A stretch of 20,000 bases of DNA from an uncultured virus (IMG/VR IMGVR_UViG_3300035670_000136). Its lineage: Duplodnaviria > Heunggongvirae > Uroviricota > Caudoviricetes. The DNA lies in the IMG/VR virus record IMGVR_UViG_3300035670_000136, one strand, 5' to 3'. The position numbers and the translations under genes were made by a program. A model generated the notes under the pieces. It did not search any database. It worked only from the letters and a program-made list of their open reading frames with translations, and was not told where the DNA came from. Shown here piece by piece: positions 1,421 to 17,169 of the stretch (positions are counted from its first letter, which is position 1; every line of letters starts with the position of its first letter).

Positions 1421-1493
1421 AAGAGGTGTAGCGTTCTGCTAATGGTACAATCCGCCAGACTGCCACCATGGGACTTCACCTTCCCCACCTCTT
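1421..1493 (+). ncRNA. Candidate structured ncRNA, perfect four-way junction (tRNA-like cloverleaf, not a canonical tRNA)
   Basis: P1 AAGAGGTG(1421-28)/CACCTCTT(1486-93); P2 TAGCG-ttc-TGCTA (1429-41); P3 ATGGT(1442-46)/ACCAT(1465-69); P4 GGGA-cttcacct-TCCC (1470-85). No linker nucleotides between stems; TATAAT at 1412-17 upstream; U-rich tract downstream. Confidence 0.6.
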
Positions 1494-1504
1494 TCTTTTT
1501 GATT

Positions 1505-1577
1505 TGTATAAATAGAGATGTCCCTCGCGGAACGGCAATTCCCAGGGACCCTAATACTGCAAAGGAGTATCAGCATG
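1505..1577 (+). promoter_or_regulatory. Late promoter plus structured leader (copy 1) of an endonuclease-like gene
   Basis: TATAAATA (1507-14, T4 late consensus); GTCCCT-cgc-GGAA-cggcaa-TTCC-c-AGGGAC (1520-49); ATACT-gcaaagg-AGTAT (1554-70) overlapping the SD GGAG; ATG at 1575. Confidence 0.8.
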
Positions 1578-1955
1578 TCTATTTATACATATAAGACTCA
1601 TAAGGCTCTCTGTAAATTATTCAATACAGAGTATCACGAAGACCCTTCATTCAGTGACCAACAATTGAATTGTGTTCCGAAAGATTCTACACTCATAGAA
1701 CCATGGAATAAAGGAAATGAACTGTTTATGGGTAAAAATAATCCCATGGCAGAAAGAACTGGCGAAAAACATTTCTTTTGGGGTAAGACTCATACAGATT
1801 CTGCGAAAAAAAGAATTAGTCTTGCTTTAGTTGAACGTATGAAGGATTATGAATACCGAACAGTTGAATGCCCTCATTGCCGTAAAGTTGGTGGCGTAAA
1901 CAATATGAATCGGTATCATTTTAATAAATGTAAATCTTTGCAATGGAGTAATTGA
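1575..1955 (+). CDS. Homing-endonuclease-related DNA-binding protein (NUMOD3-like motif + C-terminal Zn finger), no recognisable nuclease domain
   Basis: GEKHFFWGKTHTDSAKKRIS is NUMOD3-like; C-terminal CPHC...MNRYHFNKC. Start moved from 1518 to 1575 because of the AAGGAG SD; 126 aa. Confidence 0.75.
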   Translation: MSIYTYKTHKALCKLFNTEYHEDPSFSDQQLNCVPKDSTLIEPWNKGNELFMGKNNPMAERTGEKHFFWGKTHTDSAKKRISLALVERMKDYEYRTVECPHCRKVGGVNNMNRYHFNKCKSLQWSN

Positions 1956-1957
1956 TC

Positions 1958-2278
1958 ATGGCAACAAGACGTAATTTTTTCAAGTATCTTGGTCTTGCTG
2001 GTGGTGTAGCCACTGGTGGTGTTGTAGCCGCTGCTGCTGTTCTTCCTGATGCTGAGAAGTGTGAAGTGATAGAAGAAATTCAAGCTGCTGGTTACAATGG
2101 TAAGTTGACACTTGGTAATGAATATGGTCAACTTGCGCCACCAGACGGTACAATCAGTTTTGGTCCAAAATTTGTTCCAGGAACGGAAAAGCGTGTAACC
2201 GCAAGTATGACCGTCGGTCCTGATGGTGAAATGTACTTGCTTACAAACGGGAAATGGCGTAGAATAGTGACTGAGTGA
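1958..2278 (+). CDS. Hypothetical protein with twin-arginine (Tat)-like signal peptide
   Basis: MATRRNFFKYLGLAGGVATGGVVAAAA matches S/T-R-R-x-F-[L/F]-K followed by a hydrophobic, Gly/Ala-rich stretch; SD GGAG upstream. Confidence 0.7.
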   Translation: MATRRNFFKYLGLAGGVATGGVVAAAAVLPDAEKCEVIEEIQAAGYNGKLTLGNEYGQLAPPDGTISFGPKFVPGTEKRVTASMTVGPDGEMYLLTNGKWRRIVTE

Positions 2279-2305
2279 TTTATTATATTATGAAGGGGTT
2301 ATATT

Positions 2306-3250
2306 ATGTTGCAAAATGTGGAACTGTTGTGGGTCGAAAAATATCGACCTAAAACTATTGAAGATTGTATCCTTCCTGAAAACTTTAAGAAAACCTTTCA
2401 AGAGTATGTAGCGCGCAAAGAAATTCCAAACATGATCCTTTCGGGTTCAGCAGGTGTCGGTAAGACAACTGTTGCCCGAGCGATGTGTGAAGAGATTGAG
2501 TGTGATTATATTATTATCAACGGTTCAGATGAATCAGGTATTGATACTCTACGTGTAAAGATTAAAGGGTTCGCTTCCTCCGTTTCTCTGACGGGAACAG
2601 GAAGAAAGGTAATTATTATCGATGAGGCAGACTATCTAACTGCCAATGCTCAAGCCGCATTCCGTGGCGTTATCGAAGAGTTTTCTAAAAACTGTTCGTT
2701 TATCTTCACTTGCAACTTTAAAAATCGAATCATTCAACCGCTACACTCTCGATGTGCGGTAATTGATTTCAAGTTACAGAACGGTCAGAAAGCGAAGATG
2801 GCTTCTGCTTTTCTTAAGCGTGTTGAGCAGATTCTTAAAGAAGAAAAGATCTCGTATGATCTGAAGGTCGTAGCCGAACTGATTACAAAGTTCTTCCCCG
2901 ATTATCGAAGAATTTTAAATGAACTCCAGCGATACAGCGTTGGTGGTACGATCGATATTGGTATTCTTTCTAACATTGGCGATTTTAAAATCACTGAACT
3001 TGTCGCCTTTTTAAAAGAGAAAGACTTCCGAAGTGTTCGTAAGTGGGTCGCCCAGAATACCGACAACGATACTCATCGAATTATGCGCGAAATTTACGAC
3101 AAATTATATGACGTTTTAAATCCAACCACGATTCCAATGGCAGTTATTCTTCTTGGTAAGTATCAGTATCAAGCCGCCTTTGCAGCCGATCAGGAAATCA
3201 ATCTTATGGCGTTCTTGACCGAACTCATGGTCGATTGCGAGTTTAAGTGA
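2306..3250 (+). CDS. gp44: Clamp loader large subunit (T4 gp44-like, RFC-type AAA+)
   Basis: LWVEKYRP, Walker A GSAGVGKTT, Walker B IIIDEAD, and SRC motif. Confidence 0.97.
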   Translation: MLQNVELLWVEKYRPKTIEDCILPENFKKTFQEYVARKEIPNMILSGSAGVGKTTVARAMCEEIECDYIIINGSDESGIDTLRVKIKGFASSVSLTGTGRKVIIIDEADYLTANAQAAFRGVIEEFSKNCSFIFTCNFKNRIIQPLHSRCAVIDFKLQNGQKAKMASAFLKRVEQILKEEKISYDLKVVAELITKFFPDYRRILNELQRYSVGGTIDIGILSNIGDFKITELVAFLKEKDFRSVRKWVAQNTDNDTHRIMREIYDKLYDVLNPTTIPMAVILLGKYQYQAAFAADQEINLMAFLTELMVDCEFK

Positions 3251-3251
3251 T

Positions 3252-3422
3252 ATGGAAACATTATGTCTTCGAAATGCTCCAAAGCGATATATTGTGAGTA
3301 TTGGTAATAAGATACTATTAGTTACGCATGACCATCGTTATGCAAAACAAGTAGAGGCAGAGATTCGTATTCGTAAAATAACTGACGAATCTTACACAGT
3401 TATTTCTGGGGGGACTAAATGA
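3252..3422 (+). CDS. Small hypothetical protein (56 aa), not in the ORF track
   Basis: ATG at 3252 is 1 nt after the gp44 stop; METLCLRNAPKRYIV...ISGGTK*; the stop overlaps the gp62 start (ATGA) and the ORF fills the gap exactly. Confidence 0.6.
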   Translation: METLCLRNAPKRYIVSIGNKILLVTHDHRYAKQVEAEIRIRKITDESYTVISGGTK

Positions 3423-3790
3423 CTGACCTATTCAAGGATATCGTACCGAGTATTCTTCAAACTAAAAAGCCAATATTGGAGGACGAAAAAGACTACAATT
3501 CCTTTATGGTAAATCGAGCACTTTCGTATCATATGGATTGCATAATGTATGCTAACCAAATGAACGTTAATTTCGGTCTGGATAGAAAACCTCAGTATGA
3601 CTATTTAATAAATATAGTCAGGGCGAAGAAACGAAACTTTGCCAAATGGGAAAAACCCATACAAGAGGATAATTTGCAATCAATAAAGTTATTTTTCGGT
3701 TATTCTGATGCCAAGGCTGCAGAGGCTTTGAAAGTACTGACTGATGAGCAAATTGATATTATAAAAGAAAAAACGAAAATAGGTGACTGA
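3419..3790 (+). CDS. gp62: Clamp loader small subunit (T4 gp62-like)
   Basis: YNSFMVNRALS...D.IMYANQMN, QYDYL...R.KKR.F.KW.K, FGYS..KA.EAL..L; position between gp44 and regA. Confidence 0.93.
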   Translation: MTDLFKDIVPSILQTKKPILEDEKDYNSFMVNRALSYHMDCIMYANQMNVNFGLDRKPQYDYLINIVRAKKRNFAKWEKPIQEDNLQSIKLFFGYSDAKAAEALKVLTDEQIDIIKEKTKIGD

Positions 3791-3791
3791 A

Positions 3792-4199
3792 ATGAGTGTT
3801 GATAATTTAGTGGAAGTGACGCTACAGAATGCTGATGACTTCCTCAAAATCCGCGAGACACTAACGCGCATCGGTGTAGCCGCTAAAAAAGAAAATATTT
3901 TATATCAATCTTGCCATATTCTACATAAGCAAGGTCGCTATTACATAGTTCATTTCAAAGAATTATTTTTGCTAGATGGTAAAGCATCAAGCATCTCTGA
4001 AAATGATCTTGCTCGTCGTAATTCGATTGCAAATCTTTTAGAGGAGTGGGGATTGCTAAAGGTTGTTGATTCCGAAAAGATCAAAGAACCAAAAGCGCCA
4101 CTATCTCAAATTAAAATTATTGCTTTCAAAGACAAGAACGATTGGCAACTAGTTGCTAAATACAACATAGGTCGTAAGTTGGAGCCAAGACAGCAATGA
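3792..4199 (+). CDS. regA: Translational repressor RegA
   Basis: DDFLKIRETLTRIGVA, LYQSCHILHKQGRYYIVHFKELF.LDG, RRN.IA.LL.EWGL, KYNIG; ATG at 3792 follows SD AGGTGA. Confidence 0.97.
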   Translation: MSVDNLVEVTLQNADDFLKIRETLTRIGVAAKKENILYQSCHILHKQGRYYIVHFKELFLLDGKASSISENDLARRNSIANLLEEWGLLKVVDSEKIKEPKAPLSQIKIIAFKDKNDWQLVAKYNIGRKLEPRQQ

Positions 4200-4735
4200 C
4201 AAACAGAATCAACGACGAAGTTTCTCTATCAGAAGCGGTTAAGTACCACTTAGACGAAAAGATTTCATTTACTGAAAATATTTTTCGTCCAGGTTCTGAT
4301 AAATTCTTTGAGTTGATTCGTGAAGCAAAGAAACTATATTCTCGCGGCATGTATGTACCTGCTGATGAATGGGAAGTTGATTTGCTTGAAAGCGACATCG
4401 GCGAGTTTGCTGAGTTTAATGGCAAACAAGTACCATTAGATTTTCCAATTGAGATTGAAGATATTAACGAAGAAGATAAAACTGAGGGTAAAGGTATCGG
4501 CAAACCATTTCGTCAAGGAAGTGGTGGGGCTGTTTATGTTCGCACCAGTGATGGTAATGTCAAGAAAGTTAATTTCAGTCAATCAGGTATGGCAAAAAAG
4601 TATAACGATCCTGCGCGTGTTCGTTCTTTTGTTGCTCGTCACCACTGTTTGACTAACAAAGATAAGACCAGTGCTTCTTACTGGGCATGCCGTTGGCCAA
4701 GATATTTTTCAAACTCAGGTAAGACTTGGTGGTAA
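4196..4735 (+). CDS. Conserved phage hypothetical protein (acidic N-terminal half; basic C-terminal domain with R.RSF.ARH.C...YWAC)
   Basis: 179-aa ORF coupled to regA by ATGA; two-part charge architecture. Confidence 0.75.
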   Translation: MTNRINDEVSLSEAVKYHLDEKISFTENIFRPGSDKFFELIREAKKLYSRGMYVPADEWEVDLLESDIGEFAEFNGKQVPLDFPIEIEDINEEDKTEGKGIGKPFRQGSGGAVYVRTSDGNVKKVNFSQSGMAKKYNDPARVRSFVARHHCLTNKDKTSASYWACRWPRYFSNSGKTWW

Positions 4736-4998
4736 ACCCTTACGTTGAAGAACGTATTGACGCTAACAGTTTTTATCGTATCTTTGACAAAAATGTCGTT
4801 AGCGAAGAATTAGTTTGGCATCGCGACCATTCAACGCGAGTCATAACTATAATTGAAGGTGAAGGTTGGTTATTGCAATTAGACAATCGTTTACCCATAG
4901 AAATAAAAGTTGGAGAAGTCTATACTATTCCAGCAAACACTTATCATCGCGTGAAACGTGGTTTGAGTGACCTTAAGATTATGATACAGGAGATTTGA
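4726..4998 (+). CDS. Cupin-fold protein
   Basis: ELVWHRD...EG.GW.LQLDN.LP...IP...YHRV fits the two-His cupin motifs. Confidence 0.75.
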   Translation: MVVNPYVEERIDANSFYRIFDKNVVSEELVWHRDHSTRVITIIEGEGWLLQLDNRLPIEIKVGEVYTIPANTYHRVKRGLSDLKIMIQEI

Positions 4999-5000
4999 TA

Positions 5001-5651
5001 ATGGATCATTTTTATAATCAGCCACATATGGGTGAAAATTGGTTTACCTTTCCCCATCTCTATAGAGCAATGGTTGATCGATTTCCATCAGGCAGTCACT
5101 TTGTAGAAATTGGTAGTTGGAAGGGAATGTCGGCTGCATTCATGGGAGTTGAACTTATCAACTCAGGTAAAGACATTAAATTCGATTGTATTGACATTTG
5201 GGCTGAAGAAGCATATGTCAAAGAGAATACCGTCATTGACGGTAAAGTAGTTTCACAGGATCTTTTCGGCAAGGAACTTTATAACACCTTTTTAAGAAAT
5301 ATTGATCCTGTTCGTCATGTGCTAAATCCAATTCGCAAAGATTCCGTTGCTGCGGCAGCAGACTATGAAGACGGCTCGCTTGATTTTGTTTTTGTGGATG
5401 GCGATCATAGTTATGAAGGCGTTAAGCGCGACATTATTGCATGGCTTCCTAAAATGAAACCAAATAGCGTTTTTGCTGGACATGATTACGCATGGACGCC
5501 AGTCATTCAACAAGCAGTTGGAGAAATCTTTGGTCCAGGTGAATTTCATGATCCTTGGAGAAATGGTTGCTTCTTATTTGAAATTAAAGATGGTAAACCA
5601 TATCATCCAAGCATGCAAAAAAATAGTAAAGTTTTTGTTTATAACACATAA
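5001..5651 (+). CDS. Class I SAM-dependent methyltransferase (Methyltransf_24-like)
   Basis: VEIGSWKGMS (motif I), LDFVFVDGDHSYEGV..DI..W, GHDY; ATG at 5001 follows SD AGGAG. Confidence 0.88.
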   Translation: MDHFYNQPHMGENWFTFPHLYRAMVDRFPSGSHFVEIGSWKGMSAAFMGVELINSGKDIKFDCIDIWAEEAYVKENTVIDGKVVSQDLFGKELYNTFLRNIDPVRHVLNPIRKDSVAAAADYEDGSLDFVFVDGDHSYEGVKRDIIAWLPKMKPNSVFAGHDYAWTPVIQQAVGEIFGPGEFHDPWRNGCFLFEIKDGKPYHPSMQKNSKVFVYNT

Positions 5652-5662
5652 AGGAATAAATT

Positions 5663-6235
5663 ATGCTCTCAGTGAATGTATATCGACTTCGTGATGATAT
5701 TGAACTTCCAACATATGGCACTTCTTTAGCAAATTGCTTTGATTTATCATTCCAACCAACTTCAAACGTTGTGAGTGGATATGATTCATTCAATTCACCA
5801 ATTGAATATAATGTAAATCATTTAGGTGAGTTGTCAGTCTATCCTGGTGATCGTTTGCTCATCCCTACAGGATTGATCTTCAAGATCGAACGCTACGTTA
5901 CAATTGAGACGTTTGCAGACATTGCACGACACGACGACGAACTTCCACTTCAGAACTATAGCATTCGCCTTCATCCTCGCTCAGGGCTTTCGCTTAAGAA
6001 AGGATTGATCCTAGCGAACTGCGAAGGCATTGTTGATGTTGATTATCAAGAGGAAGTGTTTGTTCTTTTGACGAACGTTTCTAAAATGCATACAACAATT
6101 CGTCGTGGTGATCGCATTGCTCAGGCTGAAATTGTTGCAAATGAACCATTTCAGTTTATTGTTGCCTCTGAGAGACCAGAAAAACACTCCGAAAGAAGTG
6201 GCGGTTTTGGAAGCACAGGCGTAAATAATGCCTAA
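5663..6235 (+). CDS. dut: Trimeric dUTPase
   Basis: Motifs FDL, PRSGLS, GIVDVDYQEE, RIAQ and RSGGFGSTG. Confidence 0.93.
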   Translation: MLSVNVYRLRDDIELPTYGTSLANCFDLSFQPTSNVVSGYDSFNSPIEYNVNHLGELSVYPGDRLLIPTGLIFKIERYVTIETFADIARHDDELPLQNYSIRLHPRSGLSLKKGLILANCEGIVDVDYQEEVFVLLTNVSKMHTTIRRGDRIAQAEIVANEPFQFIVASERPEKHSERSGGFGSTGVNNA

Positions 6236-6296
6236 ATAGTATTGGATGCCCATATGGGGTCTATAACTATAAACTTGCTTATTAAAGGAGTTACAA
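6232..6296 (+). promoter_or_regulatory. hsp20 leader: late-promoter-like CTAAATA, small hairpin and ROSE-like SD-occluding hairpin
   Basis: CTAAATA at 6232-38; GGATGCCC-atat-GGGGTCT (6244-62); CTTGCTT(6274-80)-atta-AAGGAG(6285-90) pairing with a bulged G. Confidence 0.55.
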
Positions 6297-6740
6297 ATGA
6301 CTAATATAACTGCACTTACATCTATGGATCATCTTGATCGTTTACTTCCAGCAGCACTTGGTTTTGAACATGTGTTTTCTACGCTGGACAACGCAACCAG
6401 AATCTTAACTGCAACAGGAACTACATCGTTCCCACCTGTGAACGTCATTAAAACTGACGAATACAATTTCACAGTTGAACTTGCAGTCGCTGGTTATAAA
6501 CAAGATGAAATCGAAATCACTTCTGAGAGAAACTCTCTAAAAATCAAAGGCAAAAAGACAGACACCGACGAACGCAACTATCTTGTAAAGGGTATTGCTG
6601 GTCGTCAGTTTTCTCGCCAATTTGTTCTTGCTGACACAGTAGTGGTTCGTGATGCGACTCTTGCTGATGGCATTCTTTCTATTCAATTAGAAAATGTCAT
6701 TCCTGAAGAACAGAAACCTCGTAAGATTGATATCAAATAA
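6297..6740 (+). CDS. hsp20: Small heat shock protein (Hsp20/IbpA-like)
   Basis: FPPVNVIK, ELAVAGY, YLVKGIAGRQFSRQF.LAD, A.L.DGIL.I.LE..IPEEQKPRKI.I. Confidence 0.95.
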   Translation: MTNITALTSMDHLDRLLPAALGFEHVFSTLDNATRILTATGTTSFPPVNVIKTDEYNFTVELAVAGYKQDEIEITSERNSLKIKGKKTDTDERNYLVKGIAGRQFSRQFVLADTVVVRDATLADGILSIQLENVIPEEQKPRKIDIK

Positions 6741-6759
6741 CCATTGAGATAACTATATT

Positions 6760-7239
6760 ATGCATAATGATGAATTGACGTGGGATGAATTGTTTATCTT
6801 ACAGGCTACTCTGATTTCTCAGAAAAGCAAGGACCCGTCGACAAAAGTGGGGTGTATTATTGTCAATGATGATAACGTCATCTTGTCAACGGGTTTTAAT
6901 GGCTTTCCAAGAGGCATTGAAGAAGATTGGAAAGATCGATGGAAGAGTCCAGAAAAGTATCATTGGGTTGAGCATGCTGAACGCAATGCAATCTTCAATG
7001 CAGCACGTGTTGGCGTTTCATTAAATGGCGCCAAAGCCTATCTAAATTGGGAACCGAAACCTTGCGCTGAATGTAGTCGCGCACTCATTCAAGCAGGCAT
7101 CAAGGAAGTTATCGGACCAAATCGACCGTTCTCTGGTAAAGGTGCAGGAAAGCATTACTCAATTGATCACTCAGAAATTATGCTGCGCGAAGCGGGTGTT
7201 AAAATTAGAGTTTGGAACATGCCAATGGAGTTACTATGA
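6760..7239 (+). CDS. dCMP deaminase
   Basis: SKDPSTKVGC, GFNGFPRG, HAERNAI and PCAEC zinc-binding motifs. Confidence 0.92.
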   Translation: MHNDELTWDELFILQATLISQKSKDPSTKVGCIIVNDDNVILSTGFNGFPRGIEEDWKDRWKSPEKYHWVEHAERNAIFNAARVGVSLNGAKAYLNWEPKPCAECSRALIQAGIKEVIGPNRPFSGKGAGKHYSIDHSEIMLREAGVKIRVWNMPMELL

Positions 7240-7805
7240 AAGGTGAATGGGCATATTGGGAAAATTACTTCACGCCAGAAACTTGCAGTAAAATAGTTCA
7301 ACTGGCATTTAAGTTACCAGCACAAACGCCAACAGTTGGTGGTTTAACTGGCGATGCAGTTAAAACTCTCAGACGTTCCACTGTGCGTTGGATTACTGAA
7401 GACAATCCAGATTTCACTTTCTTATTCGATGAATATTGGAAATTGTTGGTTCGAATTAATCGCGATTTCTTTGGTTTTAATGTAACACATTTACCACCTC
7501 TTCAATTTACAGAATATCATTCAACAAACTTGGATGAGTATAAAAGTCATCAAGACGTGTTTTGGATCACTGATACACCTAGACATCGTAAAGTTTCGAT
7601 GATAACACAATTGTCACCAAGAAGTGATTATGACGGTGGAGAACTTGTTTTAGAAAATTTAAATCAATACCCACCAAAAGAAAAAATTGAAACTCAAGGA
7701 ACAGTCATTTCATTTCCGTCGTTTGTTCACCACTCACTTAAACCTGTAACAAGAGGAACTCGTTATAGCCTTGTTGGATGGTTTGAGGGTCCTAAATTTC
7801 AATGA
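7236..7805 (+). CDS. 2OG-Fe(II) oxygenase (prolyl-hydroxylase/PKHD-like)
   Basis: HQD...RKVS...YDGGEL...FPSF..H...PVT.GTRYSLVGW; start at ATG 7236 (ATGA overlap, SD GGAG). Confidence 0.9.
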   Translation: MKGEWAYWENYFTPETCSKIVQLAFKLPAQTPTVGGLTGDAVKTLRRSTVRWITEDNPDFTFLFDEYWKLLVRINRDFFGFNVTHLPPLQFTEYHSTNLDEYKSHQDVFWITDTPRHRKVSMITQLSPRSDYDGGELVLENLNQYPPKEKIETQGTVISFPSFVHHSLKPVTRGTRYSLVGWFEGPKFQ

Positions 7806-8392
7806 AAGCGTTGTGGTCACATACACAAGCGTTCACACCAAGTCAGTGCGAGCAGATTATCAATTCTGCTAAAAAGCAAAAACCATCTTGGGCACAAACA
7901 GGCGGCACTCCTGAATTAAAGAAAACGTTTGAACACAGAAGAAGTAAACTTGTTTGGATACCAGAAAATCATCCTGAACTTCATTTTGTTCATAGAGTGT
8001 TTTGGGGTATTGTGACACGTATGAACAATGAATACTTTAAAGCGCATATAACATCTTTACCACCTTTGCAATTTACTCAATACTCAGAACAATATCAGGG
8101 CGAATATAAATTGCATATGGATTTAGATTGGCTGGATGCTAATGGTATTGCATCGCAGTATGGTCATCAAAGAAAGGTCTCTGCCATTGTTCAACTTTCA
8201 GATCCAAATACTTACGAAGGTGGTGATTTCGAATTTGGTCATGAAGTTCGCGAAAAACCAAATTGTCATGAAATACGCAAACAAGGCACACTCATGGCAT
8301 TTCCGTCCTTTCTTCATCATGGCGTTCGACCTGTAACGAAAGGCAAACGGTACAGTCTTGTTGGGTGGTTTGAAGGTCCTCCCTGGCGCTGA
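7802..8392 (+). CDS. 2OG-Fe(II) oxygenase, tandem paralog of the previous gene
   Basis: HMD...RKVS...YEGGDF...FPSFLHHGV.PVTKGKRYSLVGWFEGP; shares LPPLQFT and RYSLVGWFEGP with the upstream gene. Confidence 0.9.
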   Translation: MKALWSHTQAFTPSQCEQIINSAKKQKPSWAQTGGTPELKKTFEHRRSKLVWIPENHPELHFVHRVFWGIVTRMNNEYFKAHITSLPPLQFTQYSEQYQGEYKLHMDLDWLDANGIASQYGHQRKVSAIVQLSDPNTYEGGDFEFGHEVREKPNCHEIRKQGTLMAFPSFLHHGVRPVTKGKRYSLVGWFEGPPWR

Positions 8393-8461
8393 CGTAAGTT
8401 ATTGATTTTATTAGGATTTTTACCCGTTGACTTTTAGAGTAAAATCAACGATAATTGTTCT
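8393..8461 (+). promoter_or_regulatory. Sigma70-type early promoter with upstream 31-bp box containing an IHF consensus (copy 1)
   Basis: CGTAAGTTATTGATTTTATTAGGATTTTTAC (8393-8423); TTGACT(8427-32)-17 bp-GATAAT(8450-55); ATG 6 nt after the -10 box. Confidence 0.75.
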
Positions 8462-8722
8462 ATGGTAAATGAAAAAGCCTACGCCCAAGGCTATAGGGCA
8501 GCAGTCATCAAGTCAATTAACAACCTTAAAGCCGAAGCCATTAGGCTCGGATTCGATTTTCCCACAGATTTTAAGCCTGAAAATTCAACGGCAGACGTCG
8601 ACGAACTAGTATATTTTCAGGCTGAAATGCTCGAATACATCTACGAACACCTAGAATTCGAGTCGATTTTATACAATCCTGAAGCCATGCCGCAGGACGT
8701 TGATAGGGCTCTTTTTCACTAA
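8462..8722 (+). CDS. Hypothetical protein (acidic, probably early)
   Basis: 86-aa ORF immediately after the promoter; no SD. Confidence 0.7.
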   Translation: MVNEKAYAQGYRAAVIKSINNLKAEAIRLGFDFPTDFKPENSTADVDELVYFQAEMLEYIYEHLEFESILYNPEAMPQDVDRALFH

Positions 8723-8734
8723 AACATCTGTTGT

Positions 8735-8802
8735 CGTAAGTTGTTGATTCTATTAGGGTTTTTACTATTGCGTTTTTCAGGGCATTTTGCTATAATAGTC
8801 TT
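8735..8802 (+). promoter_or_regulatory. Sigma70-type early promoter with upstream 31-bp box (copy 2)
   Basis: CGTAAGTTGTTGATTCTATTAGGGTTTTTAC (8735-65; 28/31 identical to copy 1); TTGCGT(8768-73)-17 bp-TATAAT(8791-96) with extended TGn; ATG 6 nt later. Confidence 0.8.
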
Positions 8803-9072
8803 ATGAAATACGAAAACACTGTAAAAGTAGGTGACGTCGTCAAGTCTCTTGACTTCGTTGGTATCAACGACTGTTATTATGTCGGTCTCGTGGTCGGCAT
8901 CAGTGACATGGACGGCACTTTCCGTGCCAAGACCATCAAGCGTGTGTGGCAGGGTAAGTTGGACAAGAAATTTCCGTCTGACTTCTTCACTGCTCCGCTT
9001 CTTGGCAACCATTTCTTCGACGACATGGCTGAAGAAAAGGGTGCCGCTCCTCGCATTCAGGTGGTTGCCTAA
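8803..9072 (+). CDS. Hypothetical protein (beta-rich; similar to 9529..9792)
   Basis: 89-aa ORF, first gene after promoter copy 2. Confidence 0.75.
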   Translation: MKYENTVKVGDVVKSLDFVGINDCYYVGLVVGISDMDGTFRAKTIKRVWQGKLDKKFPSDFFTAPLLGNHFFDDMAEEKGAAPRIQVVA

Positions 9073-9296
9073 TGAATATCGATGACCGACATGGTAGTCC
9101 GTATGATCGTGGTCGCGCTGACAGTTATTATCGTCGCGCTCGAAGTCCGCACTATATGAAAAGTGACATCAATGGCTATGTGACTTTCAATAGTGCTCGC
9201 GTGTCCGAGAAAGACATGACTGCGCAACAAATTGTTGAGTACAATCTTGGCTTCGACGAGAACGAGGCAGAACAAAATTTCAAGGAGTGGGAGTGA
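9072..9296 (+). CDS. Hypothetical phage protein (HGSPYDRGRADSYY motif)
   Basis: 74 aa; TAATG coupling to the upstream gene. Confidence 0.75.
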   Translation: MNIDDRHGSPYDRGRADSYYRRARSPHYMKSDINGYVTFNSARVSEKDMTAQQIVEYNLGFDENEAEQNFKEWE

Positions 9297-9298
9297 TT

Positions 9299-9529
9299 AT
9301 GAAAGTGCAAACTGAAACGATTTTGTCTGAAGCGATTGACCTTGTTGATGGTGTCGATCATGTTTTGGCAAACACGATGACGCAGTACGATCTGAGTAGC
9401 CGAGATTGCTACAGCATGGCAGATCGACTTGAGCGTGCGCGCAACATTCTTCTGACGATCGGCGATCGTGTGTATCGTGATGAGCGTCGTTCGCAGACTG
9501 TTGACATTATTGACGGAGTGCCATTCTAA
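9299..9529 (+). CDS. Hypothetical protein
   Basis: ATG at 9299 after GGAG; 76 aa, helical. Confidence 0.7.
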   Translation: MKVQTETILSEAIDLVDGVDHVLANTMTQYDLSSRDCYSMADRLERARNILLTIGDRVYRDERRSQTVDIIDGVPF

Positions 9530-9792
9530 TGACAGCGAAGTCTAAATTTGAATCTGCGATTAATGTTGGTGAATGCATCAAAGCATACGACATTATGCCA
9601 AGAACAGGCGTTGAATGTTATGTTGTTGGTGTGGTTCGCGAGATTAAAGTTGTAGACGACGTTAAAGTCTTTTTGATTGACTGTGTGTATGACAGTTTCG
9701 CAAATAACGACTTCACACGTGCTGGTAAGCAAGTCAAGGTTCCAGTAGCATTGTCGAAGTTTGAATTTGATCATAGAATACAAAAGGTGTAA
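9529..9792 (+). CDS. Hypothetical protein (paralog-like to 8803..9072)
   Basis: 87 aa; TAATG coupling; shared K[YF]E..V/INVG..K..D....CY.VG.V..I pattern. Confidence 0.75.
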   Translation: MTAKSKFESAINVGECIKAYDIMPRTGVECYVVGVVREIKVVDDVKVFLIDCVYDSFANNDFTRAGKQVKVPVALSKFEFDHRIQKV

Positions 9793-9793
9793 T

Positions 9794-10027
9794 ATGGGTT
9801 ATTTTAAAAATTTAGAAATTGATGTAATTGAGATGCATCGCCATGATGGTCTTAAGGAAACAGAGATCGCTAAGATCACTGGTCTTACTTTGAGCGAAGT
9901 CAATGAGATTCTCGCTGCGTATGAAAATCGTGACATGGACTACAGTGAGAATGATGGCGATATGGTCAGTTACGATGATCTCGTTTTTGATCCAGGTGAT
10001 ATTGACTATAATGCGGAGCACTACTGA
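9794..10027 (+). CDS. Putative helix-turn-helix protein with acidic tail
   Basis: GLKETEIAKITGLTLSEVNEIL is HTH-like; ATG at 9794 follows AAGGTG. Confidence 0.65.
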   Translation: MGYFKNLEIDVIEMHRHDGLKETEIAKITGLTLSEVNEILAAYENRDMDYSENDGDMVSYDDLVFDPGDIDYNAEHY

Positions 10028-10248
10028 TGGAAGATTTAAGAACTGTGTTTGATAATCAAACGTCAATACAAATGTCTAAAGTTGTAGAACACTCGCGCGC
10101 TTTGGAAGCGATGGGTTGTGCTGTGATTGTTTTTACTCCAGAGGAATTGCGTGGTGCAAAGCCAAGCAAAGTTGAAGAACGTTTGGTTGAACTCGGCTGG
10201 GAAGTGATTGATGATCTTGCCACCGAACCGAGAGAGGGTGAATTATAA
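10027..10248 (+). CDS. Hypothetical protein (paralog of 10456..10695)
   Basis: CAVIVFTPEELRGA...VEERLVELGWEVIDDLAT. Confidence 0.75.
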   Translation: MEDLRTVFDNQTSIQMSKVVEHSRALEAMGCAVIVFTPEELRGAKPSKVEERLVELGWEVIDDLATEPREGEL

Positions 10249-10463
10249 TGGTTGATGAAATCCTAGTTGAACTTGAGAGTTTACTTAAAAGTCACGACTG
10301 GTATTATGAATTCAACGACGATACTGATGCGTGGCAAAGGGGGAATCGAAATAACTTGCGGATTCATAATCTTTTAGGTACACTTGAGTCTATGGGTCAC
10401 AGGAAGATTGGCGTCAAGTTGTACGATCAATACTGCCCATGGGGTTTGAAACGAGATGAGTGA
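10248..10463 (+). CDS. Hypothetical protein (L..HDWYY motif)
   Basis: 71 aa; coupled to or overlapping neighbours on both sides. Confidence 0.7.
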   Translation: MVDEILVELESLLKSHDWYYEFNDDTDAWQRGNRNNLRIHNLLGTLESMGHRKIGVKLYDQYCPWGLKRDE

Positions 10464-10695
10464 GTTGTGGGAACGAATTCCGTACAGGAGTGAAGTTATG
10501 AATCTTGGTACTATTGAAACTCTTGAGTTGTTAAGCGAACTTCGTCGACGCGATTGTGCTGTTGTTTGTTTTGTTGCAGATGAATTGCGAGGCGCTGACC
10601 CCGATCAAGTTGAAGATCGTTTGATTGAACTTGGTTGGGGTGTAATTGATTCTCTTGCTACAGATGTGAGCGAGGATGAAGAAGATGACGAATGA
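10456..10695 (+). CDS. Hypothetical protein (paralog of 10027..10248)
   Basis: CAVVCFVADELRGA...VEDRLIELGWGVIDSLAT; an alternative start at ATG 10498 has a GGAG SD. Confidence 0.75.
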   Translation: MSELWERIPYRSEVMNLGTIETLELLSELRRRDCAVVCFVADELRGADPDQVEDRLIELGWGVIDSLATDVSEDEEDDE

Positions 10696-10906
10696 ATATA
10701 GACGTTCTGTTCTTGCACCAAGAGCAAGAGAACCGTTTGATCCGAGCAATAGCAGACACATGCTTGACTTTGCTCGCTTTGTGAAGTACAATACTTGGAG
10801 AGATGGTTGTTCGTATTATCTTGAGGATCCGTATACGGATATTCCCTCGATGATTCGAGCGAAGATTGCCGATTACACTTTATCTAAATTGGTAGAAAAA
10901 GTCTAA
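10685..10906 (+). CDS. Hypothetical phage protein
   Basis: REPFDPSN..H...F......W..GC..YLEDPY..IP.MI; 73 aa from ATG 10685. Confidence 0.75.
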   Translation: MTNEYRRSVLAPRAREPFDPSNSRHMLDFARFVKYNTWRDGCSYYLEDPYTDIPSMIRAKIADYTLSKLVEKV

Positions 10907-10907
10907 T

Positions 10908-11078
10908 ATGGAATTCTTGATTGTACTGCTGCTCTTTCTTTTATTGCCATTTCTTTTATTGAAATTTTTCTTTTCAGTAATTAGTTTTATCTGGCAGTAC
11001 ATCGGAACATTGTTTGTTGTTTTGATCATATTACTTTTTTATTCTTGTAGTTCAGCAGTGGAGTTATTAAATGTCTAA
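10908..11078 (+). CDS. Small very hydrophobic membrane protein (56 aa), not in the ORF track
   Basis: MEFLIVLLLFLLLPFLLLKFFFSVISFIWQYIGTLFVVLIILLFYSCSSAVELLNV*; ATG 1 nt after the upstream stop; fills the gap. Confidence 0.55.
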   Translation: MEFLIVLLLFLLLPFLLLKFFFSVISFIWQYIGTLFVVLIILLFYSCSSAVELLNV

Positions 11079-11259
11079 AGAAGATTTCGAAGTTTTGCCT
11101 CGCGGAACAACTGAAGAACTGAGAGTGTTGCGTCGATTTGTAAATGAAATGCTTGCATTGGCTGCGATTCACGATATGCCAGTACCGCATGAGATGCGCG
11201 CTAAACTCGACACCGTTGCTCGTTTCTATAACGAACATGTGGAGAAGTATCCGCTATGA
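11071..11259 (+). CDS. Hypothetical protein
   Basis: 62 aa; GGAG SD. Confidence 0.7.
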   Translation: MSKEDFEVLPRGTTEELRVLRRFVNEMLALAAIHDMPVPHEMRAKLDTVARFYNEHVEKYPL

Positions 11260-11576
11260 TGATCTATTGCGCTGCGCGTTTCAAACCAAAGAAGAAGCGT
11301 AAGCCAAAAGGTGTGATTGCGAAGAAGTATAACAAAAGCGCGGCAATTCTCGGAGTAGAGAAACTTCCGCGCCTTGAATATGGTTCACGAGTTGGGGCTG
11401 ATGCTGCTCGCAGTGTTCAGTCGCTCAATTCTGATAAAATCTTTACAGAAAAAAGAGAGAGCCTGATGTATACAGGCGAAAGAAAATTGTTGGGTGTGGC
11501 TGTAATGCATAAATCAAATTTGGTTCCAGTATTCGATCAAAAAGAGGCTGAAGAAATTTCTAAGATGAGACGCTAG
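11256..11576 (+). CDS. Basic hypothetical phage protein (C-terminal YTG...MHKSN.VPV...ISxMRR)
   Basis: 106 aa, Lys/Arg-rich; 3' end overlaps the convergent HNH gene. Confidence 0.8.
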   Translation: MMIYCAARFKPKKKRKPKGVIAKKYNKSAAILGVEKLPRLEYGSRVGADAARSVQSLNSDKIFTEKRESLMYTGERKLLGVAVMHKSNLVPVFDQKEAEEISKMRR

Positions 11577-12114
11577 AACAATTTGAAAAATGCCATCGAT
11601 TCATTGAACTTTTTTGCCCTTGTTTACCGCAATTAGGGCATTTTACTGTTTGTCCAAAAGGATGTTTTTGTTCTTCGATCAATTTCTTGCTTCTTTTCCC
11701 TACAACTTCTGCGTGTTTTTTAGATTGCCAATGATGTAATCTCGAAGCAACTAAAGATCTTTGTGTAATATCGGCAGGTCTGTTCCCGACATTTTGTTGA
11801 AAGTGATGAGTCCCTAATTTGACTTTTTTTCTAGATGGATTATTATCGCCTAAAAAATTATGCGTTTTGGTCGCTAATCTTTCTAAGTTTGAAATTTTAG
11901 AACCTTCGCTTTGTAGAAATTTTATGATGTCACCTTTATTCATTTGTCCAGATAAACCTTTCCAGGCTGCGAAATCTTCAGGACAACCGTATTGTTCGAA
12001 CAACTTTCGATGCGCTTCGGCATGCTCTTCGACAGTGAGTTCGATGATATTTGATGGGTCGTCAGTGCCGCCCATGTGTTTTGGTATGATATGATGCTTG
12101 TGATATATACACAT
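11560..12114 (-). CDS. Free-standing HNH homing endonuclease with C-terminal Zn finger
   Basis: HHIIPKHMGGTDDPSNIIELTVEEHAEAH (HNH); C-terminal CPNCGK...MNRWHFSNC; the only credible minus-strand gene; has its own promoter and SD. Confidence 0.88.
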   Translation of the reverse strand: MCIYHKHHIIPKHMGGTDDPSNIIELTVEEHAEAHRKLFEQYGCPEDFAAWKGLSGQMNKGDIIKFLQSEGSKISNLERLATKTHNFLGDNNPSRKKVKLGTHHFQQNVGNRPADITQRSLVASRLHHWQSKKHAEVVGKRSKKLIEEQKHPFGQTVKCPNCGKQGQKSSMNRWHFSNCSSVSS

Positions 12115-12185
12115 GTTGATACTCCATAGTAGTATTAAAGTCGGTGGATGGTAGTAACATCGCGATCGACACCTTTATTTATACA
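12112..12185 (-). promoter_or_regulatory. Late promoter plus structured leader (copy 2) of the HNH gene
   Basis: Minus strand: TGTATAAATA-aaggt-GTCGAT-cgc-GATG-ttactac-CATC-c-ACCGAC-ttta-ATACT-actatgg-AGTAT-caac-ATG. Confidence 0.8.
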
Positions 12186-12222: not shown

Positions 12223-12432
12223 ATGGGTATTCATAAACAAGCTGCTGTTGAAACTGTGAAGTCTGTTGCAGTACTTTTTGCTGCTGGTGTTGTATTTTAT
12301 TTTTTGTTGAGCATTCTTGGTCCCAAATTGGGATTATTGTTCATGCTTGTGAGTATGATTGGTTGGTTTACTTGGCTGACTTACAGTTTTTATGTTGATA
12401 AGTTTACTATGCAGGATAAGTTCAAGTTGTAA
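12223..12432 (+). CDS. Small two-TM membrane protein
   Basis: Two hydrophobic segments; AGGAG SD. Confidence 0.75.
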   Translation: MGIHKQAAVETVKSVAVLFAAGVVFYFLLSILGPKLGLLFMLVSMIGWFTWLTYSFYVDKFTMQDKFKL

Positions 12433-15864: not shown

Positions 15865-16583
15865 TGAAAAATCCTTGCATCGTAACATACTTCATGGGAA
15901 ATGTTTCGAATAAAACGGCTGAACTTCAACAGCAAGTTATCAAAAAATACAATAAATCAAACATTCCTTTGTATCAAGTAAAAGGTGAGATCCGTCATGG
16001 CGATTTTATTGATTATTTTTGGGCTATGAATGGCGTTGAAGTTGATGGCTTTAAAGATAAAAAATTAGAGCACAAATTTGAACACGATGCAATATTGATA
16101 TTGGATATTGATTGCATTCCTTTAAATGATAAAGCCATTGATTACTATTTGGAAAAGGCTGCTGAAGGTAAATTAATTGGTAATGCGCAACGCTCAAATC
16201 ACATTGAAAACGGTCAACACGTATTCGCAGCACCTTCAGCATTAGCAATTTCGAAAGAAACATTTATTAAAATCGGCACACCATTAGCGAAAGAAACGAT
16301 GCGATCTGATGTTGCTGAAGAGTATACTTGGGCAGCGGAAGAACATAATGTTCCAGTTGAGTTGACGATGCCTCTTTCTTATGCAAAGGCTCCTTACAAA
16401 TACAATTGGGAAAAAGATCAACGCCCCTTTTGGGCACTTAAAGATGGAATGCCTGTGTATGGTATAGGCACCTCATTCGGTAATGACGAGCATGGTGAAA
16501 TGTTTTATCACAACTTTCAAATATTTCATCCAGGCAGTCAAGAGATGTTTTGGGAACGTTGCGAGAAAGCATTGAATGCGTAA
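15861..16583 (+). CDS. Putative glycosyltransferase / nucleotide-diphospho-sugar transferase (GT-A)
   Basis: ILILDIDCIPL (DxD), RSDVAE, YH.F; located in the GT cluster. Confidence 0.7.
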   Translation: MMKNPCIVTYFMGNVSNKTAELQQQVIKKYNKSNIPLYQVKGEIRHGDFIDYFWAMNGVEVDGFKDKKLEHKFEHDAILILDIDCIPLNDKAIDYYLEKAAEGKLIGNAQRSNHIENGQHVFAAPSALAISKETFIKIGTPLAKETMRSDVAEEYTWAAEEHNVPVELTMPLSYAKAPYKYNWEKDQRPFWALKDGMPVYGIGTSFGNDEHGEMFYHNFQIFHPGSQEMFWERCEKALNA

Positions 16584-17169
16584 TGATTTATTAGACTTAT
16601 GCAAAACTAACAAATACGAAACTGATAAATTTGCTGAGAATAATGAGATTTGCAAATGGACAGAGGTTAAACATTCGTATGTTGAATCTGCATATGGAGA
16701 ATTATTCGAAGGTATTAGAGCGGCAAAAAATGTTTTAGAAATTGGAATTTTAACTGGCGGATCGCATCTTCTATGGAGAGATTACTTTTCGGAAGCCACT
16801 ATTGTTGGTATTGATATTAACCCTTGTGTTGCATTATTAAACCAACAAAGAATAGTTCAAATAACTGCCGACGCATACTCTATTGAAACTGCCAATTTAA
16901 TGAAAGACAATCTGTTCGATCTGATTATTGACGATGGTCCTCATACACTTTCTTCGATGAAAAGAGCAATAGAAAATTATTTGCCCAAACTTTCAAAAAC
17001 GGGTATAATGTGTATTGAGGATATTGCAGAATATGGATGGTTATATGAACTATCTAATATAGTTCCTCAAGAAATGCAAAAATGTATAAAGGTTTTTGAC
17101 CTTCGTGTTAAAGATAACAAAAATGATAGTATTCTTATGATAATTGACAAAGGTGACATAAATGGCTAA
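16576..17169 (+). CDS. Class I SAM-dependent (probably sugar O-) methyltransferase
   Basis: TDK...H.Y, VLEIGI..GGS..LW..YF, GIDI, DLIIDDGPH, IEDI. Confidence 0.88.
   Translation: MRNDLLDLCKTNKYETDKFAENNEICKWTEVKHSYVESAYGELFEGIRAAKNVLEIGILTGGSHLLWRDYFSEATIVGIDINPCVALLNQQRIVQITADAYSIETANLMKDNLFDLIIDDGPHTLSSMKRAIENYLPKLSKTGIMCIEDIAEYGWLYELSNIVPQEMQKCIKVFDLRVKDNKNDSILMIIDKGDING

Follow-up and report, generated by a model that had tools for sequence, protein, structure and literature searches.

What kind of element precedes two otherwise dissimilar endonuclease-like genes of one viral genome, and on which DNA strand does it act? The question is raised by a 20,000-nucleotide stretch (the window, at its full length) of an uncultured virus of the Caudoviricetes (IMG/VR record IMGVR_UViG_3300035670_000136), in which an original prediction, made from the letters alone, had noticed a shared leader with two hairpins ahead of two such genes. 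Both copies of this leader were recovered with the sequence and at the position first described, copy 1 at 1505–1577 on the plus strand and copy 2 at 12185–12112 on the minus strand. The analysis described below reveals a real, covarying and uncatalogued structured element, the conserved fold of which fits better on the strand opposite the endonuclease gene. We propose, with moderate confidence and from the arrangement of sequence motifs, that two late promoters face each other over its core and that the outward one would produce a small cis-antisense RNA restraining the endonuclease mRNA.

The conserved core is 55–57 nucleotides (nt) long and lies within a portable cassette of about 85 bases. 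In its hairpin 1, an outer stem of 6 bp is followed by a pair with a single bulged base on each side, an inner stem of 3–5 bp and a loop. What had been described as an invariant CGC/C internal loop is in reality a G–C pair between two bulges, since this pair covaries, being G–C, A–U or, on the sense strand, A·C (equal to G·U on the antisense strand); the invariance holds for the bulged bases themselves, which are the same in all the distinct protein-ascertained rows that cover them (21 of 22, one row being cut off). Similarly, the mismatch noted in the outer stem of copy 2 is A·C on the sense strand, but a G·U pair on the opposite strand, and copy 2 carries a further compensatory change, TCTA to TTTA together with CAGC to CAAC, which keeps a pair of the longer helix described below. 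When covariation was examined over the family, as had been suggested from the two copies, 98.8% of the 1625 cells of one alignment (A6) were found to pair, with a score of 0.535 against 0.133 for shuffled alignments, none of 500 of which scored as high. In a second alignment (A8), collected through the protein, 99.5% of 398 cells pair and 15 of the 19 pairs change on both sides; the bases fixed in the search patterns covary there too, the third outer pair being A–U in 8 rows, C–G in 6 and G–C in 6. RNAalifold, run on MAFFT alignments, returned only hairpin 1 on the sense strand and only its counterpart, hairpin 1′, on the antisense strand, where hairpin 2′ was missed because the hairpin 2 columns are gapped; gap-free 25-nt segments (61 distinct) and a model-based alignment therefore replaced the MAFFT alignments for hairpin 2. 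In the window, the structured core of copy 1 occupies 1520–1574 on the minus strand, with the 8-bp helix of hairpin 2′ at 1573–1551 and the terminator-like hairpin 1′, with two bulged G, at 1549–1520 (89.7 bits with model R1, over 1506–1588), and that of copy 2 occupies 12115–12170 on the plus strand, with hairpin 2′ at 12116–12138 and hairpin 1′ at 12140–12170 (74.2 bits, over 12101–12184).

The family was collected by scanning IMG/VR with three patterns, each leaving other parts of the motif free. The first, composed of the promoter and the 5′ half of hairpin 1 (TATAAATA-N5-GTCNNTCGCG), matched 104 viral stretches; the complementary 3′ half, although outside the pattern, was present in 99 of 106 matches (the two of the window included), so that the resemblance of the copies goes far beyond chance, the remaining seven being six chance matches and one decayed copy. 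The second pattern, hairpin 1 plus UCUA with the promoter left free, matched at least 121 stretches (at least 104 distinct), and the third, in which the interior of hairpin 1 was left free, at least 118 (at least 95 distinct). Among the matches listed for this third scan, 79 have a complementary outer stem, 53 of them with CGCG...CC and 26 with a variant interior, which reads CACG in every case. Together the three scans yielded at least 162 distinct cores, and the counts over 161 or 162 cores given below refer to the distinct cores pooled from the matches listed. A fourth sample was collected via the protein of copy 2, P0002, and comprised the best 80 loci coding for relatives of its HNH domain; P0002 alone as a query returned two loci, and an alignment query was used in its place. 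Model R1 found the element in 26 of these best 80 loci, always over the start of the open reading frame (ORF) and always on the opposite strand. In agreement with the suspicion that the motif is uncatalogued, no Rfam 15 family matched at either cassette when the whole window was searched on both strands (two matches up to E = 1, both elsewhere).

Outside the uncultured viruses, the element was scarcely encountered. No match was found in GenBank phages by megablast of 8 kb or blastn of the 106-nt leader, and R1 gave nothing above 8.2 bits at four HNH loci of cultured phages (S-SRM01, S-SKS1, S-B05 and Klebsiella phage Hyena). The patterns matched 106 times in prokaryote genomes, and only 5 of the 80 matches examined are real by R1: three on short contigs of metagenome-assembled genomes, one on a 132-kb contig of the same kind and a weak one in an Alistipes chromosome. 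Separately, three HNH homologues that R1 does not match (L353, L400 and L409) have another GC-rich hairpin, followed by (C)UCUAA, a Shine–Dalgarno (SD) region and TATTTAT after the ATG, suggesting from sequence likeness that the cassette superfamily is wider than R1 detects.

The strand preference emerged from the comparison of the two complementary folds. The antisense fold is the more stable one in 153 of the 162 distinct cores (mean −18.1 versus −13.5 kcal/mol for sense), and for the hairpin 2 segment in 158 of 162 (−7.2 versus −2.4 kcal/mol). On the antisense strand, this segment forms an 8-bp helix, CUGNNNCU/AGNNNUAG, which takes in the invariant CAGC and UCUA and thus accounts for their invariance. 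Over the 61 distinct gap-free segments, the eight pairs of this helix are standard in 97.1% of cells on the antisense strand versus 76.6% on the sense strand (14 versus 114 unpaired cells of 488), with antisense G·U where the sense strand has A·C at three pairs (59, 19 and 18+1 cells). Hairpin 1 shows the same pattern at two positions, where sense A·C mismatches become G·U on the antisense strand; one of the outer pairs has 12 of these mismatches and the pair enclosed by the bulges has 14, and neither position shows any sense G·U. The minimum free energy is −20.2 kcal/mol antisense versus −16.8 sense for copy 1, and −14.2 (z −1.92) versus −7.1 (z −0.23) for copy 2. The sense leader first envisaged, with its SD sequence occluded by hairpin 2, is not upheld by these values, the sense SD helix being weak at a mean of −2.4 kcal/mol with 76.6% of cells paired. 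Nor do the data lend support to a switch that responds to a ligand or a protein.

Promoter-like motifs lie on both sides of the core. A T4-type late promoter TATAAATA is located 5 nt before the core of copy 1 (1507–1514, plus strand), directed inward and serving the endonuclease-like gene, and the same motif serves the HNH gene of copy 2 (12176–12183, minus strand). Across the family, the inward TAAATA is spaced by N5 in 111 of 162 distinct cores and by N4 in another 15 (126 in total). At the other end, TATTTA follows CAGC by 4–7 nt in most cores, with a mode of 5 nt, which is the spacing of the sense promoter. This motif underlies the common MxIY start of the two proteins, which had been taken for a protein feature: the start is present in both, but what is conserved is the nucleotide motif TATTTAT, which occurs in all three reading frames (87 as nnT-ATT-TAT, 12 as TAT-TTA and 5 in the third frame). 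Codons for I/T-Y occur in all 26 of the 80 HNH homologues that carry the element and in 6 of the 54 without it, and homologues without the element start M-K-H-K-H-H. The puzzling MxIY would be explained as a promoter read in the wrong sense, being on sequence grounds the complement of an apparent opposite-strand late promoter of the form (N)ATAAATA.

In copy 1, this outward motif is a perfect TATAAATA (1580–1587, minus strand) lying inside codons 2–5 of the ORF, 5 nt ahead of G1574, with which the antisense structure begins and where that spacing would place the transcription start. Copy 2 has a degenerate motif, GATATATA (12102–12109, plus strand), one mismatch from NATAAATA and 5 nt before G12115. 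The sequence NATAAATA, that is, the (N)ATAAATA form, is described as the late promoter of T4-like cyanophages (PMC2984593). In 96 of 161 cores, GCUG is preceded at a distance of 3–8 nt by an exact outward TAAATA, and in 45, copy 2 included, by a form with one mismatch. The window contains three perfect TATAAATA motifs, all within the two cassettes; by count alone, this is not remarkable (chance expectation 0.98, with three reached in 20 of 200 shuffles). Beyond hairpin 1′ lies a U-rich tail, AUCUCUAUUUAUAC in copy 1 (1506–1519, minus strand; the complement of the sense promoter, after a terminator-like call ending at 1520) and ACCUUUAUUUAUAC in copy 2 (12171–12184, plus strand). The 10 nt after hairpin 1′ contain on average 6 U, and the same number is found in the 33 cores without a sense TAAATA, where the tail is typically AUUUUUGUUG. 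The flanking promoters and tails thus give the cassette a symmetric layout, TAAATA-N5-[core]-N5-TATTTA.

Two groups of loci show other flanks. L118, L126, L136 and about 16 loci besides have GTCAACAAAAAT immediately before hairpin 1 in place of the sense late promoter. The opposite strand of this subclass reads AUUUUUG followed by a near-consensus sigma-70 promoter (TTGACA-N17-TATAAT/TATACT/TACAGT), which points away from the cassette and the spacer of which holds a covarying hairpin resembling the PeSL modules discussed below. In L156, L196 and L207, both late promoter motifs are missing and the ORF lacks TATTTAT, with the two-helix core intact; an ordinary terminator hairpin with a T-run lies upstream of these three.

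In the predicted mechanism, each cassette would represent head-to-head late transcription units over the core. The inward promoter, TATAAATA-N5, would start the endonuclease mRNA at the base of hairpin 1, and the outward promoter, (N)ATAAATA, hidden in codons 2–4 of the ORF, would start an RNA at the G complementary to the last C of CAGC. This RNA would begin with the 8-bp helix, bearing the anti-SD sequence CUCCUU in its loop, and continue through one linker base into the bulged terminator-like hairpin and the U-rich tail. With a length of about 60–75 nt, it would be fully complementary to the 5′ end of the mRNA (the first ~55 nt), including the SD sequence, and reach the AUG; most likely, it would limit the translation or stability of the endonuclease mRNA. 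In line with such a role, the core holds the complement of GGAG and ends 0–3 nt from the ATG, the presumed antisense start lies at or beyond this point, and a promoter motif on the opposite strand, within the 5′ coding region, faces the mRNA promoter. We infer an active outward promoter, an RNA that stops at hairpin 1′ and repression of the endonuclease gene by this RNA.

Several points weigh against this proposal. The outward motif is missing from 20 of 161 cores, and copy 2 has it with one mismatch only. The tail starts with A, is interrupted and makes no textbook terminator, and a simple scan called it in copy 1, not in copy 2. Hairpin 1 is nearly strand-neutral (−9.9 kcal/mol sense versus −10.6 antisense, the sense strand being better in 59 of 162 cores), and its innermost pair favors the sense strand (G·U in 16 versus A·C in 4). 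Moreover, the asymmetry alone is no proof of RNA, because G·T is tolerated in single-stranded DNA. The patterns behind three of the four collections hold parts of the motif fixed, and the counts of paired cells overstate the number of independent events, since the sequences are related by descent. Finally, the spacing from late promoter to start site that places the antisense 5′ end is a figure of general background knowledge.

A sense mRNA leader is an alternative that we regard as possible but unlikely. In this alternative, the late mRNA would start at hairpin 1, acting as a 5′-terminal stabilizer or protein site, and hairpin 2 would throttle the SD sequence, the whole being a cis-regulatory 5′ untranslated region (UTR), perhaps a switch. 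It is consistent with the TAAATA lying 4–5 nt before hairpin 1 in 126 of 162 cores, with hairpin 1 folding about equally well in the sense orientation and with the SD sequence GGAG lying inside hairpin 2, and the literature gives a hairpin over the ribosome-binding site (RBS) plus a late promoter as the rule for endonuclease genes of T-even phages (PMC2988022, PMC3014915). The low mean stability of the SD helix and its 114 of 488 unpaired cells, versus 14 on the antisense strand, argue against it, and RNAalifold found hairpin 1 only on the sense alignment (as it found only hairpin 1′ on the antisense one, with the gapped columns mentioned above). Furthermore, a sense leader leaves unexplained the conserved UCUA and CAGC, the TATTTAT kept in three frames, the U-rich complement of the upstream side and the strand asymmetry. 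A leader role for the sense transcript would nevertheless be compatible with an antisense RNA.

A second alternative accepts the outward promoter, but supposes that it serves a neighboring phage gene, the fold being a structured leader, an attenuator or an insulator. According to a crude ORF heuristic, which misjudged copy 2, 29 of 53 distinct contexts have a divergent upstream gene, so that the outward RNA would run into that gene; the outward RNA of copy 2 points at a plus-strand ORF (12223–12432) located 52 nt past the core. Invading endonucleases can, moreover, bring promoters for their neighbors (PMC2988022). Nonetheless, we consider this explanation improbable. In 19 of the 53 contexts, copy 1 included, the upstream gene is co-directional and the outward RNA would be antisense to it, yet the fold is equally kept; the U-rich tail right after hairpin 1′ argues for a stop rather than for elongation into a gene, and in one subclass the neighbor has its own near-consensus sigma-70 promoter just past the tail.

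The genes that follow the element fall into several classes. The two proteins of the window, P0001 (1575–1955, plus strand; 126 amino acids (aa), starting MSIY) and P0002 (12114–11560, minus strand; 184 aa, starting MCIY), are alike only in the C-terminal stretch of Cys motifs, as originally noted (23 of 57 residues identical, E 8e-11). At its extreme N-terminus, P0002 carries an HNH motif (18.9 bits against Pfam HNH, under the cut-off of 21.4) and matches PHROG 655, "homing endonuclease" (E 2.2e-21). In P0001, a NUMOD3 repeat was the only match (22.3 bits), with no recognized nuclease domain. Among 81 distinct downstream ORFs from the first scan, Pfam assigned HNH to 19, HNH_3 to 3, GIY-YIG (weakly) to 2, NUMOD3 to 28 and no family to 33. 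A second classification of 80 downstream ORFs, by motif sorting, gave 24 of HNH type, 22 of GIY-YIG type, 20 of a class without known catalytic domain, termed "SDQ", to which P0001 belongs, and 14 others. The element therefore heads HNH-type, GIY-YIG-type and also a third class of genes, and the expectation that it travels with endonuclease cassettes of unrelated families proved right. One and the same leader, identical in L002 (window copy 1), L030 and L078, heads three N-terminal classes, its identity extending from the promoter at one end to TATTTAT at the opposite end; the element is thus a module that belongs to no single gene.

As an observation on these proteins in their own right, about 20 of the 80 distinct ORFs share an N-terminal domain of ~45 aa with the pattern M-x-I/T-Y-..-L-C-E-I-L-N-..-SDQ-E-L-N-x-I-P-E-D, followed by NUMOD3 repeats and matching neither a Pfam family nor a nuclease motif (P0001 at 1575–1700, plus strand, and L004, L014, L027, L028, L035, L043, L063, L070 and L074 among them). 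From its sequence, this SDQ domain may be a new small domain, or its carriers may be nuclease-less DNA-binding relics.

An extension of the antisense proposal, which we view with considerable doubt, is that the RNA acts beyond its own cassette. As a diffusible specificity determinant, it would work in trans on further cassettes whose leader matches, whether these belong to its own genome or to that of a co-infecting phage, and homing endonucleases would thereby be subject to mutual multicopy inhibition or "incompatibility"; both stems turn over rapidly by compensatory change, which would in that case reflect their divergence into specificity groups. The two invariant bulged G might instead be a binding site for the DNA-binding module of the cassette protein, for example NUMOD3, in which case the RNA would be a true partner of the nuclease.

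A further alternative is that the module acts as DNA, namely as a single-stranded hairpin, a cruciform or an ~85-bp portable patch of homology through which cassettes are shuffled, as has been proposed for PeSL motifs (PMC4122927). The identical leaders before three unrelated N-terminal classes, bounded by promoter and TATTTAT, would suit this view, as would a contig of run X1 that skips 1490–1963 by joining 1489 to 1964 (side 30), itself a weak hint of the presence and absence, or replacement, of cassette 1; the tolerance of DNA for G·T pairs points the same way. We judge it very improbable all the same. Identity would be enough for homologous recombination, which does not require that pairing be kept, yet compensatory change is seen in 15 of 19 pairs; a cruciform would favor neither strand; the flanks resemble a promoter and a U-tail at fixed spacing; and PeSLs use early sigma-70 promoters, not late ones. 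Hardly tenable, finally, is a mask in the style of I-TevI and T4 gene e, for which the principle is established (PMC3014915) and in which read-through UAUAAAUA would pair with UAUUUAU in codons 2–4 and close the start region, late transcripts without the 5′ arm being translated: copy 1 does have a perfect 12-bp inverted repeat (1505–1516 with 1577–1588), but TATTTA is kept, exactly or with one mismatch, in 24 of the 30 cores without an upstream TAAATA, six to eight A–U pairs closing a ~60-nt junction would be weak, and such a long-range helix between promoter and codons was rejected as the main explanation because the complementarity past the 6-bp core (1.67 for true versus 1.49 for shuffled partners, 69 of 1000 shuffles being as high) is not above that of shuffled partners.

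The surroundings of the two cassettes are those of a T4-like replication module, with genes for deoxynucleoside monophosphate kinase, sliding clamp, clamp loader subunits, RegA and DNA polymerase, and cassette 1 sits between the clamp region and the clamp loader. The source viral fragment, 21.8 kb long, holds these two copies of the element only. A search for tRNA genes ahead of copy 1 found none. A long inverted repeat (1423–1500, plus strand; AGAGGTG...CACCTCT, then a T-run) separates cassette 1 from the ORF that ends at 1408; it looks like the terminator of the upstream gene and, on the other strand, would also stop an outward RNA of copy 1. Contigs of other runs skip 3256–3422 (window 3255–3423; a 56-aa ORF between clamp-loader genes, two runs) or have 19 other bases in place of 8423–8783 (window 8422–8784; four runs), and both places represent additional small indel cassettes among the relatives of this phage. 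Elsewhere in the window, 6240–6302 (plus strand) matches the Rfam family ROSE_3, a heat-shock RNA thermometer, below threshold (32.6 bits versus a gathering score of 43, E 0.0023), directly 5′ of an Hsp20-like phage ORF (6297–6740, phrog_432); it is a possible thermosensor candidate, by sequence, for a phage small heat-shock gene.

The element is spread over hundreds of uncultured viral contigs, the T4-like assignment being that of the window itself. If the antisense proposal is correct, phage genome annotation would gain a new structured RNA family and a compact example of convergent late promoters, and nuclease genes of unrelated families would be headed by a portable promoter/antisense-RNA module. 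With the cassettes, it would also become possible to ask whether RNA is a means by which mobile nuclease genes control or exclude each other.

The proposed arrangement is worth comparing with several known systems. In type I toxin–antitoxin pairs, such as SymE/SymR and hok/sok, the start of the mRNA for a harmful protein is covered by a short cis-antisense RNA, with a promoter in the 5′ part of the gene; unlike in these pairs, an addiction logic is not evident for the cassette in a lytic phage. The PeSL elements of T4-like phages are likewise short repeated modules of promoter and stem-loop tied to modular exchange, but they have early sigma-70 or middle promoters and a stem-loop that is a simple terminator (PMC4122927). 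The cassette has two late promoters, a covarying two-helix fold and a fixed link to endonuclease genes, and its promoters are of the TAAATA type, the sigma-70-like TTGACA-N17-TATAAT beside some copies lying outside the conserved core. The element itself was not described in the literature covered by full-text searches, where the nearest relatives are the "fractured genes" of Dassa et al. (2009), metagenomic free-standing GIY-YIG or Vsr-like endonuclease genes with a conserved upstream hairpin, ten of which include TATAAATA (PMC2677866). The motifs listed there, as given in the Figure S4 text within one of the two supplementary files, differ from the cassette in sequence and have the promoter inside the hairpin.

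An antisense orientation is seen in CfrI of the cyanophage S-PM2, which has its annotated 5′ end 58 nt within F-CphI, a homing endonuclease ORF, and runs antisense across the start of that ORF (PMC2984593). Like the predicted cassette RNA, CfrI covers an endonuclease start in a T4-like phage; in contrast, it is ~200–225 nt long and extends into psbA. The CfrI locus (16545–16742) gave no R1 match with filters off over 45 kb of S-PM2, the best score being 10.8 bits elsewhere, and by this model CfrI and the cassette RNA appear not to be the same RNA family.

In its logic, the predicted RNA resembles art200 of IS200 and RNA-OUT of IS10, small structured antisense RNAs that lie opposite the 5′ UTR and start of a mobile-element enzyme gene and cover the ribosome site. 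In IS10, the promoters pIN and pOUT face each other, as the two late promoter motifs do here. There is no homology of sequence or structure with the cassette, which belongs to a lytic T4-like phage, carries late (gp55-type) motifs and heads homing endonuclease genes. For art200, repression has been demonstrated experimentally and consists in blocking translation initiation (30S binding) of tnpA (PMC4513863), whereas the cassette RNA is a prediction from sequence. Cis-antisense control of a mobile-element enzyme is accordingly a known kind of regulation, and it is the RNA family, the pair of late promoters and the link to homing endonucleases that are not in print as far as literature searches show.

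Homing endonucleases are common selfish genes of large phages, and in phage T4 the nucleases of mobile elements are held down by several layers of control (PMC2988022). The endonuclease genes I-TevI, I-TevII, I-TevIII, segB and mobE of T-even phages and Aeh1 share with the cassette a late promoter beside a hairpin at the start of the gene, limiting expression; there, a stable sense-strand hairpin hides the SD sequence and contains the late start (PMC2988022, PMC3014915). In the cassette, neither a stable SD-sequestering sense hairpin nor a late promoter within a 5′ arm was found; instead, both hairpins lie downstream of the promoter, the SD helix has little stability in the sense orientation and the fold is that of the other strand. 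Restraint of phage homing endonucleases is known from a few T-even cases, all of them sense-strand RBS hairpins, and the cassette, if the antisense proposal holds, would add a second, apparently widespread way of achieving it.

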